Source: Planctopirus limnophila DSM 3776 (lineage in GTDB: Bacteria; Planctomycetota; Planctomycetia; Planctomycetales; Planctomycetaceae). Taken from it: 32,000 nucleotides of DNA. This document shows, piece by piece, positions 3,257-25,353 of this stretch. Position numbers and translations under genes: made by a program. Under the pieces are notes generated by a model that had not been told where the DNA came from, made no database searches, and worked only from the letters and a program-made list of their open reading frames with translations. The stretch is taken from contig NC_014148.1 in assembly GCF_000092105.1 (NCBI RefSeq), positions 5,391,076 through 5,423,075 of the forward strand, read 5' to 3'. Within the stretch, counting starts at the first letter, position 1, and each line of letters begins with the position of its first letter.

Positions 3257-4297
3257 TTAGAACTCGTTGACCGTCTCTCCCGAGGCACGAGTTCCTATTG
3301 CACCCCACACACCATAAGGAGATGGGCCGCTGCCAGGCGAGGTCGCATTGGGATCACCGGCACTGATGTTTTCGCTGATGAATCGCACAGCGCCATCACC
3401 CATCAACGCATGAATGCCCCCTGTATGCCGACTGGAAGCCGTGGCGTGGCCCCAGCCACCATCGACCGTTGAGCTTTGGCAGGAAGGACCGTTGGGCCGA
3501 ACAGCAGTGGCCACAAAGGCGAAGTATGGCCGTCCATCCCAGGCACGTCCCCCCGGTGGTCGGAAATCTGTCCGCACAGCACCAGTCAAAGTACGGGTGG
3601 CAGGATCAATCAGGCTGAGACAGGCCTGAGGAGTGCTGGTTGTCACACCCACAGCCACACCACCCAGGATCGCGGTGGTATCGACACCACCCATGACAGC
3701 TTCGGCCATCATGATGGTATTGCTGGTACCGTCTGTCACATCACGCATGCCTGTATTGCTGCGGTAGGCGAACATGCCGCGAGTATTGGTGCCGTTGTTG
3801 TCGTTGAGAGTATCTCCCACACTCACGCGATAGTTGAGCAGGCTGGGGCTTTCATTTCGATTGCCGGGTGGTACATCGGAGGGGCAGATGAAGCCGGGAA
3901 CATCGACGGTAAAGTAAGCGGGTCGATTCCAGGGATCAGCCATTCCCGCCCCGGTATTGGCCATGATCGTGTTATACAGTGGTGTCTGATCGACATACGG
4001 CAGAATGCTGATCGCGAAGGAATACCGACGGCCCGATGTCCCTTTCATCCCATCGACACCCGCTGGCGGAAAGACGCGGAACGTGTCGTGGTAATTGTGC
4101 ATCGCAATCCCCAATTGCTTGAGGTTATTGCGGCACTGAGTCCGCCGGGCCGCCTCGCGCGCCTGCTGCACAGCCGGGAGCAGCAGGGCAATCAAAATAG
4201 CGATGATCGCAATGACCACCAGCAGCTCGATCAGTGTGAATCCCGGACGACGAGCAACTCGCCCAGGACGTGCAGTGGGAAGAGTCAAGCGGTACAT
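3257..4297 (-). CDS. DUF1559 / prepilin-type N-terminal cleavage-methylation domain protein (H-X9-DG family), paralog 1
   Basis: Type IV pilin-like leader [56 protein letters not shown], and C-terminal [12 protein letters not shown] (H-X9-DG) followed by VRFISENI. The track ORF starts at 4318. I prefer the ATG at 4295-4297 because it is preceded by GGAG 6 nt upstream. Confidence 0.9.
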
Positions 4298-6841: not shown

Positions 6842-6920
6842 TTCTCCGGATGGATACTCATCACGAAGTGCTTGGCTGTCATCCGGTGACAGGCAAGCCT
6901 TGAGACCGCACTAAACACAA

Positions 6921-6951
6921 CAGGCCCGACCATGATTCATGGTCGGGCCTG
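6921..6951. terminator. bidirectional intrinsic terminator (ends the + strand genes and the - strand tRNA)
   Basis: Perfect 14-bp stem, CAGGCCCGACCATG (6921-6934) with CATGGTCGGGCCTG (6938-6951). The tail is TGTTATT on the plus strand and TTGTGTTT on the minus strand. Confidence 0.8.
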
Positions 6952-7007
6952 TGTTATTCAGTCGCGAGTTTTGCAGCCAGCTGAGAACAGATAGCAAAAA
7001 ACTCCAA

Positions 7008-17710: not shown

Positions 17711-18652
17711 TTAGAATTCACCCACAGTTTCGTTTTTGCCGCGGGTGCTGATGGCCTGATAGGTGGGCATGTGCATGTTTTCAGAAAGGAAACGGACACT
17801 GCCATCACCCATCAGAAAGTGGGCACCACCGGTGTGATAACTTCCGGCAGCTTCTTCGGTGTAGGAATTGATGGGGTCGTTACCTTCGGCGGCAATCAGA
17901 TATTCCGACATTTCTGTGGGAGGATTGCTGTCGGCACCACCCGAAAAACCATGCTTGCGGTCACTGCCACCACCGCCCAGCCTGTCGGCATCTCCCCCCG
18001 AATCGACCACTTCACTGATGAAGATCGTGTTGGAAAGTCCATCGGTGACATCCCGGAAGCGAATGCTGCTGCTGATGAAGAAAATCCCATCGCAATTCAT
18101 GCAGCCACCGGCCTGTGTCATCGTGGCGAATGTGCGACCACCACTCAGGCAGTCGTCGCCATCGTTTCCAATCAATGTTCCCATGTTGGCATTGTAGTTG
18201 GATGGTGCGTAGCCATTCTTTTGAACACCCAGCGTGACATCGGGCTGCGAAGGACACCAGAAGACCGTTAATGGTGCTTTACCCACCAGATCCTGCTTGG
18301 AATCGCCTACGCCACCACCTTCAGTCCCCATACCATTCACACCCTGGACTTCGTTGTACATGGGTGCCTGATCAATGAACGGCAGCAGGCTGGCATGCCA
18401 CGTCCAACCGTGACCGTTGTAAGCCGTCCCGGCGGCATTCAGCAGGACAATGCTTCCGGAAGGAAGCGCCTGATAGACATCGTGATAGTTGTGCAGAGCC
18501 AGGCCGATCTGCTTGAGATTGTTTTTGCACTGAGTTCTGCGGGCTGCTTCTCGAGCCTGCTGAACAGCTGGGAGCAGGAGTGCAATCAGAACTGCGATGA
18601 TCGCAATGACCACAAGTAACTCAATCAGAGTAAAGCCACTTCGGCGTCGCAT
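17711..18652 (-). CDS. DUF1559 / prepilin-type N-terminal cleavage-methylation domain protein (H-X9-DG family), paralog 2
   Basis: [58 protein letters not shown], and C-terminal [12 protein letters not shown] followed by [11 protein letters not shown] at 18652 has GAGGAA upstream; the track ORF begins at TTG 18658. Confidence 0.9.
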
Positions 18653-18946
18653 GAACAATTCCTCAAATCATGGCAAGAAAACAGGGACGAGCTGATGGTT
18701 TGCTCCGCTCGGAGCTGGCTCAAAAACAGGAGACGAAAGTAGCATGACGAGCAAACCTGTTGGTGATCACACCAGTTTGCCTGGCTACTGAAATTGGAAA
18801 AATTCGAGCATTATCAATCACTTTGAACTAGGTGAAAACACTCGTTTGTTTGTGTGAATTCCGTATGAACGTCCTGTTAAGTAACTGATAGGAATTAAAA
18901 TCGATTACTGGTTGACAAATCATCACAACTGAACAGCCTCCAAAGC

Positions 18947-18987
18947 AAATCACGGTCAGTCGCTGTGACAGCCACTGACCGTGATTT
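18947..18987 (-). terminator. intrinsic terminator of the DUF1800-DUF1501 operon
   Basis: Perfect 14-bp stem, AAATCACGGTCAGT (18947-18960) with ACTGACCGTGATTT (18974-18987), plus an inner GCTG/CAGC pairing. It lies 39 nt past the stop at 19026. The minus-strand tail is ATTTGCTTTGG. Confidence 0.7.
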
Positions 18988-19025
18988 GTAAGGTGAGAAG
19001 AATGCCTGCCGTTCAATCGTGGGGA

Positions 19026-22272: not shown

Positions 22273-23325
22273 ATGAACATCCAGAAACGACATGGTTTCA
22301 CTTTGATTGAACTGCTGGTAGTGATCGCCATTATTGCAATATTAATTGCATTGCTTTTACCAGCCGTGCAGCAGGCCAGAGAGGCCGCCAGGCGAACTCA
22401 ATGCCGAAATAATCTCAAGCAACTGGGTCTGGCTCTCCATAATTACGAGAGCACTTTCACGGTCTTTCCCACAGGTGGAAACAGTTCGAGTTACTCGGTC
22501 CAGGCTCGAATTCTCCCCTATATCGATCAGGGCAATGTGCAGAATCTGATCAACTTCAGCGTGCCTCCACAGATTGGCTCCGGCCCCAGTTCGACAGTCA
22601 ATCCGGCACTTGCGACAGTTTTCCCGAACGTGGTGCCCGTTTTCCTTTGCCCCAGCGATCCTGCTCCCACGCAATATCGATTCGCTTCCGGAGCCAACAC
22701 TTATACCTACGGCGGCAACAACTACATGGTCAGCACCGGCAGCGGGACCGGCACCTTCTACGACGACCGCTTTCCCACAGATGGAATCTTCTGGTTTAAC
22801 TCGAGTGTCCGCTTCCGGGACATCACTGACGGGACTTCCAATACCGTTTTCATGAGTGAAACCATTCGCGCCGATGGAAGCCCTGACAGCACGAGTGAAC
22901 CATTTCCTTACCGCAAGCTGCTGGCTGGAACTTCCGGTGCCTCGAGCAGTGGAGCTCCCGCCACGGGCGGCTACATGGGTTCTGGAAGTGGCTGGCAAAC
23001 AGGCCTCATCAGCAATCCCGATCTCGCTCCCGTCATTCCCGGAAAGACCTGGAAAGGTGGAACGGATGGCTCAGGACGCGGCCTCTCCTGGGTTCGTTCA
23101 CTCAGCACTTACGTCACCACCAACGGTTATAACCGACCCAACAGCAACATCCCCGATGTTCAAGTTCACGGCGTCGGCTTCTATGGCCCTCGCAGTCTCC
23201 ACACAGGTGGCGCTCACGTATTGATCGGCGACGGAACCGTTCGCTTCCTCTCTGAGAACATCGATATCACACTCCACCGCGCACTTCACAGTCGCAACGG
23301 CAACGAAGTCGTCTCCGAATTCTAA
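22273..23325 (+). CDS. DUF1559 / prepilin-type N-terminal cleavage-methylation domain protein (H-X9-DG family), paralog 3
   Basis: GAGGAGG ribosome-binding site. [62 protein letters not shown]9-DG is [12 protein letters not shown] (His codon at 23200, Asp codon at 23230), followed by VRFLSENI. Confidence 0.92.
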
Positions 23326-23590
23326 CCCCTGGCGGGGCTTGGGGCAGCGTATGGACGCCAGTCGTTCATTAACGAAAGGGGCTTACGCTGCCAGAGGGTG
23401 ATATGAGTGAATTGCCCATGCCTCTTGCGGGGTTTGTGGCAGCGTATGGACGCAAGTCGTTCATTGATGAATGGGGCCTACGCTGCCAGAGAGTAATGTG
23501 AGTGAATTGCTCATGCCCCTTGCGGCGTGTGTGGAAGCGTATGGACGTCAGTCGTTCATTGATGATTGGCGCCGACGCTGCCAGAAAATC
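23326..23590. repeat. tandem repeat, 95-bp period, about 2.8 units, each unit with a nested hairpin
   Basis: Unit starts are at 23343, 23438 and 23533 (GGCAGCGTATGGACG / GGAAGCGTATGGACG). Units 1 and 2 align without gaps with 12 mismatches in 95 by hand count. The outer stem is GGCAGCGT/ACGCTGCC. The inner hairpin is ATGGACG-N5-CGTTCAT. Confidence 0.85.
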
Positions 23591-23596
23591 TTCAGT

Positions 23597-23650
23597 CAGG
23601 CATACTGCCTGGAAAGTCACTTTATCGCTTGAGAGCGGTGGGTGACTTTC
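23597..23650 (+). other. two further stem-loops downstream of the tandem repeat
   Basis: CAGGCA-TAC-TGCCTG (23597-23611). GAAAGTCAC (23612-23620) pairs perfectly with GTGACTTTC (23642-23650), with an inner CGCT/AGCG pairing. No clear U-tail follows. Confidence 0.4.
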
Positions 23651-23737
23651 TGCCATTCGATAAAGACGTGTTGGCGGAAATAGAATGACTTCTACACAAC
23701 ATCAGAATTTAGCGGTCGTTCCTGGAGAGCAAATGAA

Positions 23738-25210
23738 ATGAATCGATGGTACTTGCAGGTTTGTGGTTGGATCACGGCTGGTCTGTCTCTTTGGGGCACA
23801 TCTCAGGCGACAGAAGTATGGCCTGGCTTTCGAGGCCGGGGAGACAGCCATATGGATGGTGGCCAACTCCCATGGTCCTGGGAAGCGCGAGGTCAAGTTC
23901 AAGGGAACTGGTCGATCCGACTCAAAGGCTATGGGCAATCCAGCCCTGTCGTCTGGAAAAATGTCGTCTATGTGACATCCATCTCGGGAGAGATGAAGGA
24001 GCACCTGCACCTTTTCGCGTTTCATCTTGCTGACGGTGCCCTTCTTTGGGAGAAGGAGTTTTCCGCCACTCAGAAGGTCAAGGACAGCGACACCGTTAGC
24101 CGGGGGGCTCCGACGCCAGTTGTAGATGATGGTCATGTTTATGCCATGTTTGAAAGTGGCGATCTCTTTGCACTCGACCACTCAGGAAATCTGAAGTGGG
24201 AGCGATCTATTGTCAAAGACTATGGTGAGTTCAAGGGCCCGCATGGCTATGCCAGTTCACCGCTGCTGGTGAACGACCTGTGTGTCATTCAAGTGGCGCA
24301 TTCAGGCCCTTCTTACATTCTGGCTCTGGATCGAAAGTCAGGCCAGAACCGCTGGAAGGTTGATCATCCGTCACAAACAGGGTGGAGTTCGCCGGCAGTT
24401 TACGACAAGGATGGCCAGTCTCAGATCCTGATTTCGACTGCCGGGAGTGTCCGCTCTTTGAATCCTGAGAATGGGGCCACACTTTGGATGAGTGAAGAGA
24501 TCCAGGGCAACTCCACAGCATCTCCCACAGTGGTCGGAGATCTCGTCGTGATTGGTGCCGCAACAGAGCGGGGTGGTGGGGGCGGACGACGCACTGGGAC
24601 AACCCCACCTGGCGTCACTCCATCTGCTCCGACTTCAAGTTCACCTGTTCAGACTTCTCAGGGTGAACAGCCTCAGGACGCAACATCAAAACCTCCGGGT
24701 CCTTCAGGAAATGAATCGGCGGGTTCGCCATCCAGCAGTGAGCGTCCGCAGAGTCCACCCTCCAGCAAACCTACAGGAAGTGGCGTTTTTCGCCTGCATG
24801 ATCTTTCGGCCGATCAGACTCGTCTGGTCTGGAAATCGGATAAGGTTTCTTCGGGCTATGCTTCACCCGTTGTTGTGGGAGATTTCGTCTACTTCGTGAA
24901 TCGAGTGGGTGTCGTGACTTGTGCAAGACTCAGCGATGGAGCGATCCAGTGGCAACACAGGCTCCCCGGTGAAGTCTGGGCCTCTCCGATTGCCAATAAT
25001 GGACACGTCACTTTCTTTGGAAAGTTTGGCTTTGTGGTCACGCTCAAAAGCGGGCCACAGATTGAAGAGATCGGCGAAAGCAATATCTCGACAACCGAGG
25101 TCGTTTATGGAGTTGCAGCCGTTGATAACAGTTGGATTGTTCGCACTGGTCGAGGATTGATTCGGATCAGTGACCCATCGAATACGAAGCCGAGTTCTCC
25201 AGCAAATTAA
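23738..25210 (+). CDS. PQQ-like (BamB-type) beta-propeller repeat protein, secreted, with internal low-complexity insert
   Basis: GGAGAG ribosome-binding site and a signal-like N-terminus. WPGFRGRGDS, with repeated blades of the form ...SSPVVWKNVVYV..., ...DGALLWEKEF, GAPTPVVDDGHVYAM...GDLFALDHSGNLKWE, SSPLLVNDLCVIQ..., ALDRKSGQNRWKV. A G/P/S/T-rich insert of about 70 aa is present. Confidence 0.85.
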   Translation: MNRWYLQVCGWITAGLSLWGTSQATEVWPGFRGRGDSHMDGGQLPWSWEARGQVQGNWSIRLKGYGQSSPVVWKNVVYVTSISGEMKEHLHLFAFHLADGALLWEKEFSATQKVKDSDTVSRGAPTPVVDDGHVYAMFESGDLFALDHSGNLKWERSIVKDYGEFKGPHGYASSPLLVNDLCVIQVAHSGPSYILALDRKSGQNRWKVDHPSQTGWSSPAVYDKDGQSQILISTAGSVRSLNPENGATLWMSEEIQGNSTASPTVVGDLVVIGAATERGGGGGRRTGTTPPGVTPSAPTSSSPVQTSQGEQPQDATSKPPGPSGNESAGSPSSSERPQSPPSSKPTGSGVFRLHDLSADQTRLVWKSDKVSSGYASPVVVGDFVYFVNRVGVVTCARLSDGAIQWQHRLPGEVWASPIANNGHVTFFGKFGFVVTLKSGPQIEEIGESNISTTEVVYGVAAVDNSWIVRTGRGLIRISDPSNTKPSSPAN

Positions 25211-25253
25211 GGCTGGCTCTCGTGGTGGGATGAATGAAAAGGCTTTGCTGAAC

Positions 25254-25291
25254 GAAAAGCGCGTCTGCAATCATGCACCGACGCCCTTTTC
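25254..25291. terminator. possible bidirectional terminator between convergent genes
   Basis: GAAAAGCGCGTC (25254-25265) pairs with GACGCCCTTTTC (25280-25291) at 11 of 12 positions. The core is GC-rich, with an A-tract on one side and a T-tract on the other. The GC core is short, so support is only moderate. Confidence 0.45.
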
Positions 25292-25353
25292 TATTGAACC
25301 TGTGGATCCCCTGAATTTCGGACATTTCACAAGTCTAGCAAAGTTTAAACGAT

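Follow-up and report, generated by a model that had tools for sequence, protein, structure and literature searches.

A low-copy family of structured hairpin elements at three orthologous loci in Planctopirus and close relatives

A 32,000-nt stretch of the Planctopirus limnophila DSM 3776 genome (contig NC_014148.1, positions 5,391,076 to 5,423,075 of the forward strand; hereinafter referred to as the window) carries a tandem array of hairpins in the spacer downstream of a DUF1559/N_methyl pseudopilin-like gene. Comparison with related genomes identified this array as part of a genuine, selected and previously undescribed family of low-copy structured elements in Planctopirus and its close relatives. 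The kind of element is already known, namely structured intergenic or 3'-untranslated region (3'-UTR) hairpin elements. Judged from the alignment, the conserved unit is a module of about 75 nt consisting of two hairpins, H3 and H1. It is not the 95-bp period that an initial annotation, made from the letters of the window alone, had taken as the unit; relatives carry only one or two copies at this position (locus A). The same annotation had proposed a real structured element and not a one-off slippage, which was borne out by more copies at other loci and in other genomes, and the outer hairpin that it described was kept in all further copies.

Conserved module and search for further copies

The module consisted of H3 (CCCCTTGCGGGG), a 5-nt U/G-rich linker (TTTGT or CTTGG), the 50-nt hairpin H1, and AGA. 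H3, a GC hairpin of 4-5 bp, was located ahead of H1 at constant spacing in every copy, including single copies, and was doubled alone in several copies. A third hairpin, H2, and the 95-bp period were locus-specific and lay outside the common module. Across the 24 distinct copies of alignment A3, almost no variation was seen in the two arms (GGCAGCG(T)A and (T)ACGCTGCC), in an ATG following the 5' arm, or in the apical AGTCGTTSA. As RNA, the basal stem has 9-10 bp, (U)GGCAGCGUA/UACGCUGCC(A), and the apical motif reads AGUCGUUSA; both were kept as sequence. The 3' half of the H1 apical region was variable among copies.

Copies were collected with a strict pattern (GGCAGCGNATG-N20-42-ACGCTGCCAGA) in a scan of one genome per species, covering 185,579 species. 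Matches of the Planctopirus type were found only in P. hydrillae (three contigs) and in two metagenome-assembled genomes (MAGs) of 'Planctomyces sp.' Nine other matches differed in length and context, were mostly situated inside coding sequence, and look like chance. The scan did not return those copies of P. limnophila and P. ephydatiae that fit the pattern; loci B and C of both species were recovered by targeted look-up. A looser pattern detected two more orthologous copies in JGI metagenomes, and an exact 23-nt core pattern gave 0 matches over a genome-contig collection from which the source genome appears to be missing. A covariance model constructed from the 24 copies (R1) detected nothing further in 210 kb of related or Planctopirus-type DNA, a scope that included no complete genome.

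Three orthologous loci

In the Planctopirus genomes, the module was found at three orthologous loci with a copy number of 1-3. At locus A, it started 0 nt after the TAA of the DUF1559 gene in five genomes, with three copies in P. limnophila, two in P. hydrillae, two in the DS3.3.33 MAG, and one each in P. ephydatiae and GCA_006365015.1 (contigs VFQR...; hereafter the VFQR MAG). The P. limnophila window thus has the largest copy number of the family at this locus. In protein identity to the PQQ-like beta-propeller protein encoded downstream in the window, the closest relative was P. hydrillae (95%), and the DS3.3.33 MAG was distant (64%).

The genome of P. ephydatiae lacked the propeller gene at locus A, and its module was still positioned directly after the DUF1559 stop codon, which indicates that the module belongs to the 3' end of the upstream gene and not to a downstream leader. 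Among the three options raised initially (3'-UTR, independent small RNA, 5' leader of the propeller gene), the leader is consequently the least likely. The spacer between the DUF1559 gene and the RDD gene was 137 bp in P. ephydatiae (L029:7699-7835), corresponding to 23326-25353 in the window. This makes the propeller gene polymorphic for presence or absence among members of the genus.

At locus B, a single module was located 2-3 nt after the stop codon of a gene encoding a DUF4953/DUF5117 zinc metalloprotease. About 20 nt past the module, an 11-bp GC-rich stem was followed by T5-6, forming a classical terminator whose stem showed a G-C to T-A exchange (in either direction) between species. 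This terminator escaped a simple scanner; a loop of more than 8 nt is the probable reason.

At locus C, 2-3 modules (copy numbers 2, 3, 2, and at least 2) were repeated about every 89 bp, divergent from lnt and about 80 nt from its start. Independent Logan assemblies (L031:1-60, L032:1-50, L034:1-55) of the two species P. limnophila and P. ephydatiae were all interrupted 200-310 nt upstream of lnt, immediately past the modules of locus C, a pattern that repeat-induced breaks in assembly could produce. P. ephydatiae harbored a two-gene insertion between lnt and a DUF900 hydrolase gene (L033:11986-12557), consisting of an 87-aa open reading frame (ORF) and a ParE-toxin-family gene; the insertion was absent from P. 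limnophila.

Selection on the module

The window was compared with the distant DS3.3.33 MAG. Third codon positions in the last 600 nt of the DUF1559 gene were 55% identical, whereas the module was 84% identical by hand count. Two segments were 100% identical: H3, linker and 5' arm (32 nt), and the 3' arm with AGAGGG (17 nt), making 49 nt in total (hand count). Because the module and its arms are so much more similar than synonymous sites, the sequence is regarded as selected and not as slippage debris. The arms were also near-invariant across the three paralogous loci, which predate the species splits. These comparisons show that the module is under strong purifying selection (or concerted evolution). 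The outcome that the initial annotation had named as refuting its finding, local slippage only, was itself refuted by the copies elsewhere and the selection on the module.

Pairing and the folded strand

Pairing was scored in the 24 copies on a hand-specified structure comprising H3, a 10-bp basal stem, and middle and apical helices. Overall, 83.7% of cells could pair, in comparison with 27-48% when partners were slid by 1-3 columns; for H3 the value was 95.8%. The outer pair of H3 showed an exchange between C-G and G-C in seven sequences, probably reflecting one or two events. A single C-G to U-A exchange, seen in the VFQR MAG at locus B, affected the middle helix. In H2, units 1 and 2 of the window differed by an exchange of G-C for A-T, and inspection showed such an exchange relative to P. 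hydrillae too.

The nested inner hairpin, ATGGACG-N5-CGTTCAT, had been put forward as a selected structure on the grounds that its arms are identical in the three units of the window. Its pairing was present there, with one G.T pair and loops CCAGT, CAAGT, and TCAGT, but it was not kept family-wide: 70% of cells were paired, and pair 38-46 was broken in 18 of the 24 copies. The invariance in the window is attributable to the recent common origin of the units. An alternative apical helix reached 76.5% paired.

In H3 and the middle and apical helices (P2 and P3), G.U pairs on the element strand outnumbered A.C mismatches, which correspond to G.U on the complement, by 66 to 4. In addition, for all five copies that were folded, the predicted stability of the element strand exceeded that of its complement by 3-11 kcal/mol. 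The basal stem can be formed by both strands. The top strand is probably the one that folds, as RNA or as single-stranded DNA, and the element is read as a real hairpin whose base is recognized by sequence.

Array in the window

Tandem Repeats Finder detected one array (23326-23585) with a period of 95, 2.7 copies, 86% matches, 0% indels, and a score of 380. The same three copies were recovered by a separate repeat search of the window, and the core pattern occurred three times versus 0 expected in shuffles; no further copy was found elsewhere in the 32 kb. Every checked point of the initial description (period, copies, starts, mismatches, hairpins, and the 412-bp gap) held. Units started with GGCAGCGTATGGACG at 23343 and 23438 and with GGAAGCGTATGGACG at 23533. 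Units 1 and 2 differed at 12 of 95 positions in that register, and at 13 of 95 in the register from 23326. The resemblance of unit 3 ended at ...CGCTGCCAGA. Three hairpins were predicted per unit (H3, 12 nt; H1, 50 nt; H2, about 22 nt), and the outer inverted repeat was a perfect 9-10 bp in units 1 and 2, with two mismatches in unit 3. The gap extended from the stop codon (23323-23325) to the next ATG at 23738, and the first base of the element was the base after the TAA. An identical spacer was also present on a Logan contig of P. limnophila. The features, all on the plus strand, were as follows:

22273-23325, plus strand: upstream DUF1559/N_methyl pseudopilin-like gene (Pfam PF07596, E 7.5e-66; PF07963)
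23326-23337, plus strand: H3 copy 1, short GC hairpin CCCC-TGGC-GGGG (from sequence)
23343-23392, plus strand: H1 copy 1, 50-nt hairpin with basal arms GGCAGCGTA/TACGCTGCC (covariance model R1, 87.9 bits)
23396-23417, plus strand: H2 copy 1, locus-specific inter-unit hairpin GGGTGAT...ATTGCCC (minimum free energy fold)
23421-23432, plus strand: H3 copy 2 (CCTCTTGCGGGG), followed by TTTGT (from sequence)
23438-23487, plus strand: H1 copy 2 (inverted repeat; R1, 85.5 bits)
23491-23512, plus strand: H2 copy 2, GAGTAAT...ATTGCTC (sequence and fold)
23516-23527, plus strand: H3 copy 3 (CCCCTTGCGGCG), with one stem mismatch (from sequence)
23533-23582, plus strand: H1 copy 3, terminal, basal stem with two mismatches (GGAAGCGTA/GACGCTGCC) and a continuous upper helix (R1, 71.9 bits)
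23597-23611, plus strand: small hairpin CAGGCA-TAC-TGCCTG, 3' of the array (from sequence)
23612-23650, plus strand: 39-nt hairpin GAAAGTCAC...GTGACTTTC (inverted repeat; no T-run)
23738-25210, plus strand: downstream PQQ-like beta-propeller gene (protein identical to ADG70047.1; Pfam PQQ_2), context only

The module of copy 1 had a predicted fold of -34.5 kcal/mol (z -2.9). The 3' end of the array was about 150 nt short of the propeller gene. Of the two hairpins in between, the small one (23597-23611) was kept in P. hydrillae, and a different small hairpin took its place in the VFQR MAG. The arms of the 39-nt hairpin were identical across P. limnophila, P. hydrillae, and the VFQR MAG; this hairpin may be an intercistronic structure or else mark the point at which the DUF1559 transcript ends. 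The simple scanner flagged no site resembling a Rho-independent terminator over 23200-23800. A sigma-70-like match at 23657-23686 was rejected as a promoter: it was not conserved in the orthologues, where the -10 element was CAGCAT or CAGAAT, and a promoter of the propeller gene's own is therefore unproven.

Array history and distant relatives

The triplication is a P. limnophila-specific tandem amplification of an old module. The terminal copies of P. limnophila and P. hydrillae had in common a GGCGCC variant and the downstream flank AGAAAATCTTCA. In P. ephydatiae and the VFQR MAG, the single copy joined an interior like that of unit 1 to the same flank. This distribution fits unequal crossing-over that recurred between two or more ancestral units, and not a single recent slippage event.

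No covariance-model match was obtained at distant DUF1559 orthologues (73% and 68% amino-acid identity). The 73%-identical orthologue, from an ENA metagenome, was followed about 15 nt past its stop codon by a shorter hairpin, CGGCAGCACGC-N11-GCGTGTGCTGCCG (L039:1528-1585), the base of which, GGCAGC/GCTGCC, is that of H1; it may represent a precursor or ancestral form of H1. Nothing comparable to the module was found at the Schlesneria DUF1559 orthologue.

Comparison with known element families

The initial annotation had not recognized the array as a known RNA family, repetitive extragenic palindrome (REP), miniature inverted-repeat transposable element (MITE), or CRISPR, and the searches agreed. 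Rfam 15 gave no match inside 23326-23737 at E<=10. At loci B and C, only sub-threshold chance matches were obtained, none of them over H1; the best (25.8 bits versus a gathering score of 57) fell on the terminator hairpin of locus B. Searches of plasmid, phage, and viral-contig sequences gave no match, and the six-frame translation of the array against 5.8 billion proteins yielded nothing at E<=10. The 95-aa minus-strand ORF overlapping the array, dismissed as a gene from the outset, had no Pfam match and was not present in a collection of 15 billion proteins. In the literature on Planctopirus, no transcriptome, small RNA, or repeat description was found.

REPs are imperfect palindromes of 20-40 nt with a GTAG or CGTC tag, present in tens to thousands of copies per genome, mostly as head-to-head dimers and often tied to RAYT transposases (PMC3733652). 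A REP or bacterial interspersed mosaic element (BIME) was rejected on size (H1 has 50 nt, plus a separate 12-nt hairpin ahead of it), on tag (the flanks are TTTGT/CTTGG and AGAG, with no GTAG or CGTC), and on copy number (three loci in P. hydrillae by the strict pattern and none extra in 210 kb by the model). The genes called around each locus, over distances of up to 10 kb, included no RAYT or IS200-like HUH transposase. A MITE was rejected since the same three orthologous positions were occupied in every genome, with only the copy number within arrays varying, and no direct duplication flanked the element. A CRISPR array was rejected because repetition extends over all 95 bp, including the segments between hairpins, which are about 80% identical in units 1 and 2, and because no cas genes were found in the window or at the loci.

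With regard to intrinsic-terminator features, H1 is followed by AGAG and not by Ts, and H3, with 4-5 bp followed by TTTGT, is a weak candidate. Several other readings were rejected. As an integron attC site, the element has ends GGCAGCG/CGCTGCC and not GTTRRRY, and no integrase gene was found at any locus. A sigma-54 promoter reading of TGGCAG-N-..GC failed on a GG-to-GC spacing of 8 nt, not 10 (hand count). Readings as K-turn, CsrA-GGA, attC, or oriT-like sequences failed on motifs that were not kept across copies (by inspection). A 16-codon ATG...TGA/TAA frame in H1 of units 1 and 2 (MDASRSLTKGAYAARG / MDASRSLMNGAYAARE; 23351-23401 and 23446-23496) was rejected as a micro-ORF because it is interrupted in other copies: its sixth codon is a stop in the DS3 copy, and its second codon is one in three copies of locus B. 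Between units 1 and 2, three of seven differences were synonymous and the stop was swapped for another stop. This frame is probably coincidental.

The module nevertheless resembles several known systems. Like the REP/BIME elements of Enterobacteria and Pseudomonas, it forms intergenic palindromic hairpins that commonly follow stop codons or separate cistrons and that occur alone or in local clusters. Unlike them, it is a tagless unit of about 75 nt (12-nt and 50-nt hairpins), occurs at about three orthologous loci in head-to-tail orientation, and has no transposase nearby. ERIC/IRU, RUP, Correia/NEMIS, and BOX elements (about 100-130 nt) are similar in size, form long imperfect hairpins in transcribed intergenic regions, and are able to alter mRNA stability or processing. 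They differ in having many dispersed copies, as MITE-like insertions that vary between strains, whereas the module has stable orthologous positions, a very low copy number, and no evident target-site duplication.

The small RNA paralogues LhrC1-5, PrrF1/2, and OmrA/B share head-to-tail structured units of about 100 nt, a conserved single-stranded motif, and a species-variable copy number. Their genes each have a demonstrable promoter and a Rho-independent terminator; the module has none detectable of that kind, and two of its three loci begin at a stop codon. In ToxI/CptI of type III toxin-antitoxin systems, a tandem direct-repeat RNA array is likewise located directly upstream of a protein gene and followed by hairpins, but the repeats have about 36-40 nt and the gene encodes a ToxN/AbiE-type endoribonuclease, in contrast to the period of 95 and the PQQ-like beta-propeller here. 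A ToxI-like element was rejected because the downstream PQQ_2 beta-propeller gene is dispensable for retention of the element and loci B and C have other neighbours.

Possible function and alternative explanations

The explanation that we tentatively favour, at a little under even confidence, is an RNA hairpin module, transcribed within a 3'-UTR or between cistrons, with sequence-specific recognition of its basal stem. The module would be transcribed as a 3' untranslated or intercistronic part of the mRNA of the upstream gene and, as RNA, would act in cis as a stable hairpin recognized by a protein. The hairpin might set or protect the 3' end of the upstream message in a REP-like manner. Blocking of 3'-5' decay of the upstream message by REP elements is the mechanism favoured for the module by analogy; in the malE-malF operon, intercistronic REPs stabilize the upstream mRNA. 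The module might also be released as a 3'-UTR-derived small RNA, and its copy number would drift through unequal recombination or slippage between neighbouring modules. This explanation is favoured because the module is adjacent to the stop codon and co-oriented with the upstream gene at two of three loci, because it is located upstream of the terminator hairpin at locus B, and because it stays with the upstream gene when the downstream gene is lost. That the basal stem is kept as sequence without covariation suggests sequence-specific recognition, not recognition of any hairpin.

Several observations weigh against such a module. Of the 25 pairs, no more than 3 showed double changes, and one of these 3 did so in a degenerate copy; the basal stem was simply conserved and never covaried. 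The apical helix was broken in the locus A copies of P. hydrillae (unit 1), P. ephydatiae, and the VFQR MAG, and the interior of H1 had no single consistent fold. RNAalifold applied to the 24 copies recovered only H3 and a small alternative helix, and not the basal stem of H1. The z-scores of the folds were moderate (-0.9 to -3.7) with no consistent strand preference, and the P. ephydatiae copy folded no better than shuffles (z -0.9). The excess of G.U pairs may be partly compositional. Within Planctopirus, H1 was 92% identical in comparison with 90% at synonymous sites and 74% in the adjacent spacer. H1 lacked a following U-tract, and neither a sigma-70-like promoter nor a terminator pattern was flagged. 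At locus C, the modules were on the strand opposite to both neighbours, with no co-oriented ORF upstream, so that a sense 3'-UTR model needs either a separate promoter there or an orientation-independent function. This objection is softened by the mutually reverse-complementary arms, which look identical in either orientation to a factor that reads the stem.

A more specific and quite improbable extension is that the basal stem (U)GGCAGCGUA/UACGCUGCC(A) and the apical AGUCGUUSA constitute the module by which a dedicated RNA-binding protein or endonuclease of Planctopirus recognizes its target. If true, this would represent a new post-transcriptional control system or a family of 3'-UTR-derived small RNAs, and the tandem arrays would be multivalent binding platforms or decoys, with copy number tuning the response.

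Alternatively, each unit could be an independent small RNA gene of about 95 nt, tandemly duplicated in the manner of known multicopy small RNAs, which we consider unlikely. In such a gene, H1 would be the 5' hairpin, followed by a single-stranded or H2 linker, H3 with UUUGU as terminator (a stronger one at locus B), and AGUCGUUSA as seed. Locus C, a free-standing array that follows no co-oriented gene, agrees with this layout, as do internal units that end in H3 and then TTTGT, and the succession of H1, an A/U-rich linker, and a strong terminator hairpin at locus B, which resembles the 3' half of a small RNA. Furthermore, the apical motif is kept as sequence while its proposed pairing partner varies. 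However, no promoter-like sequence was found upstream of the units, and at loci A and B, where only 0-3 nt separate the stop codon from the module, any promoter would need to be inside coding sequence. The fixed spacing of H3 before H1 in every copy makes H3 look like the 5' part of the module and not like the terminator of the previous unit, and its stem has only 4-5 bp.

The function could also be exerted at the DNA level, transcription being irrelevant, and to this we assign a similarly low probability. The palindrome TGGCAGCGTA-N30-TACGCTGCCA would then be a protein-binding or recombination site, or a relic single-stranded DNA hairpin of REP, PATE, or IS200-like type, recognized by an HUH enzyme and amplified in tandem like BIME clusters. 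Arms kept as sequence without covariation around an interior that varies at fixed length would be expected of such a site. Its occurrence in both orientations relative to neighbouring genes, the intergenic location with local tandem amplification, and a basal stem possible on both strands point in the same direction. Against it, only three loci per genome were seen, all orthologous and with no sign of mobility, no transposase or recombinase was found among the called neighbours of any locus, and plasmid and phage sequences gave no matches. The GTAG/CGTC tag is missing, and H1 exceeds the 20-40 nt of REPs (PMC3733652). The strand asymmetry of G.U pairs (66 versus 4) and the H3 exchange fit a single-stranded top strand better than a duplex.

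Functionless debris from neutral local slippage duplication of a terminator-like hairpin is highly improbable: the lineage-specific triplication, the decaying terminal copy, and the locus-specific H2 part agree with it, but the module and its arms were conserved well beyond synonymous sites and all Planctopirus genomes examined had retained it at the three paralogous loci, so that this explanation is contradicted for the module itself and could survive only for the extra copies.

Other repeats and genes observed

A second, unrelated repeat, TGTGCCATGCTTGCGGCyCTGrGCAAGCATG, with a 9-bp stem (CATGCTTGC/GCAAGCATG), was detected at at least four distinct intergenic sites in Planctopirus DNA (L013:4555-4590; L035:3104-3140; L037:9660-9700, minus strand; L037:12788-12825, plus strand; and L033:9740-9780, L028:3700-3740, and L020:2824-2840, all on the minus strand). 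Two inverted copies flanked the zinc-protease gene of P. ephydatiae, and one Logan short-read contig ended in this repeat. It was absent from the window and looks like a higher-copy REP-like family.

Elsewhere in the window, two near-perfect palindromes were identified at 6920-6952 (33 nt) and 18946-18988 (43 nt), with predicted folds of -40 and -36 kcal/mol, respectively. Each was followed by a short T-rich stretch; their sequences were unique and unrelated to H1, and they probably represent the usual terminator style of the P. limnophila genome. The window also contained three DUF1559 paralogues, whose 5' ends (4068-4243, minus strand; 18480-18638, minus strand; 22293-22469, plus strand) were 73-77% identical at the nucleotide level over about 160 nt, corresponding to the N-terminal methylation/prepilin region. 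Only the third of these paralogues was associated with the hairpin module. In P. hydrillae, a LarC-type nickel-insertion protein (L013:5181-6680) had a C-terminal (HDHS)n tail of about 100 residues.

Significance for Planctopirus

To our knowledge, almost no regulatory RNAs or intergenic repeat families have been described in Planctomycetota. P. limnophila is among the few members of the phylum known to be genetically tractable. The family provides a target under clear purifying selection, with a covariance model to define it and three loci in each genome. It also carries a caution, as the eye-catching tandem repeat is the young, variable part, and the conserved unit is smaller and visible only through comparison. 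The natural variation of one to three copies between sister species constitutes an allelic series with which to ask if hairpin modules of this sort determine mRNA 3' ends, mRNA stability, or intercistronic expression ratios.

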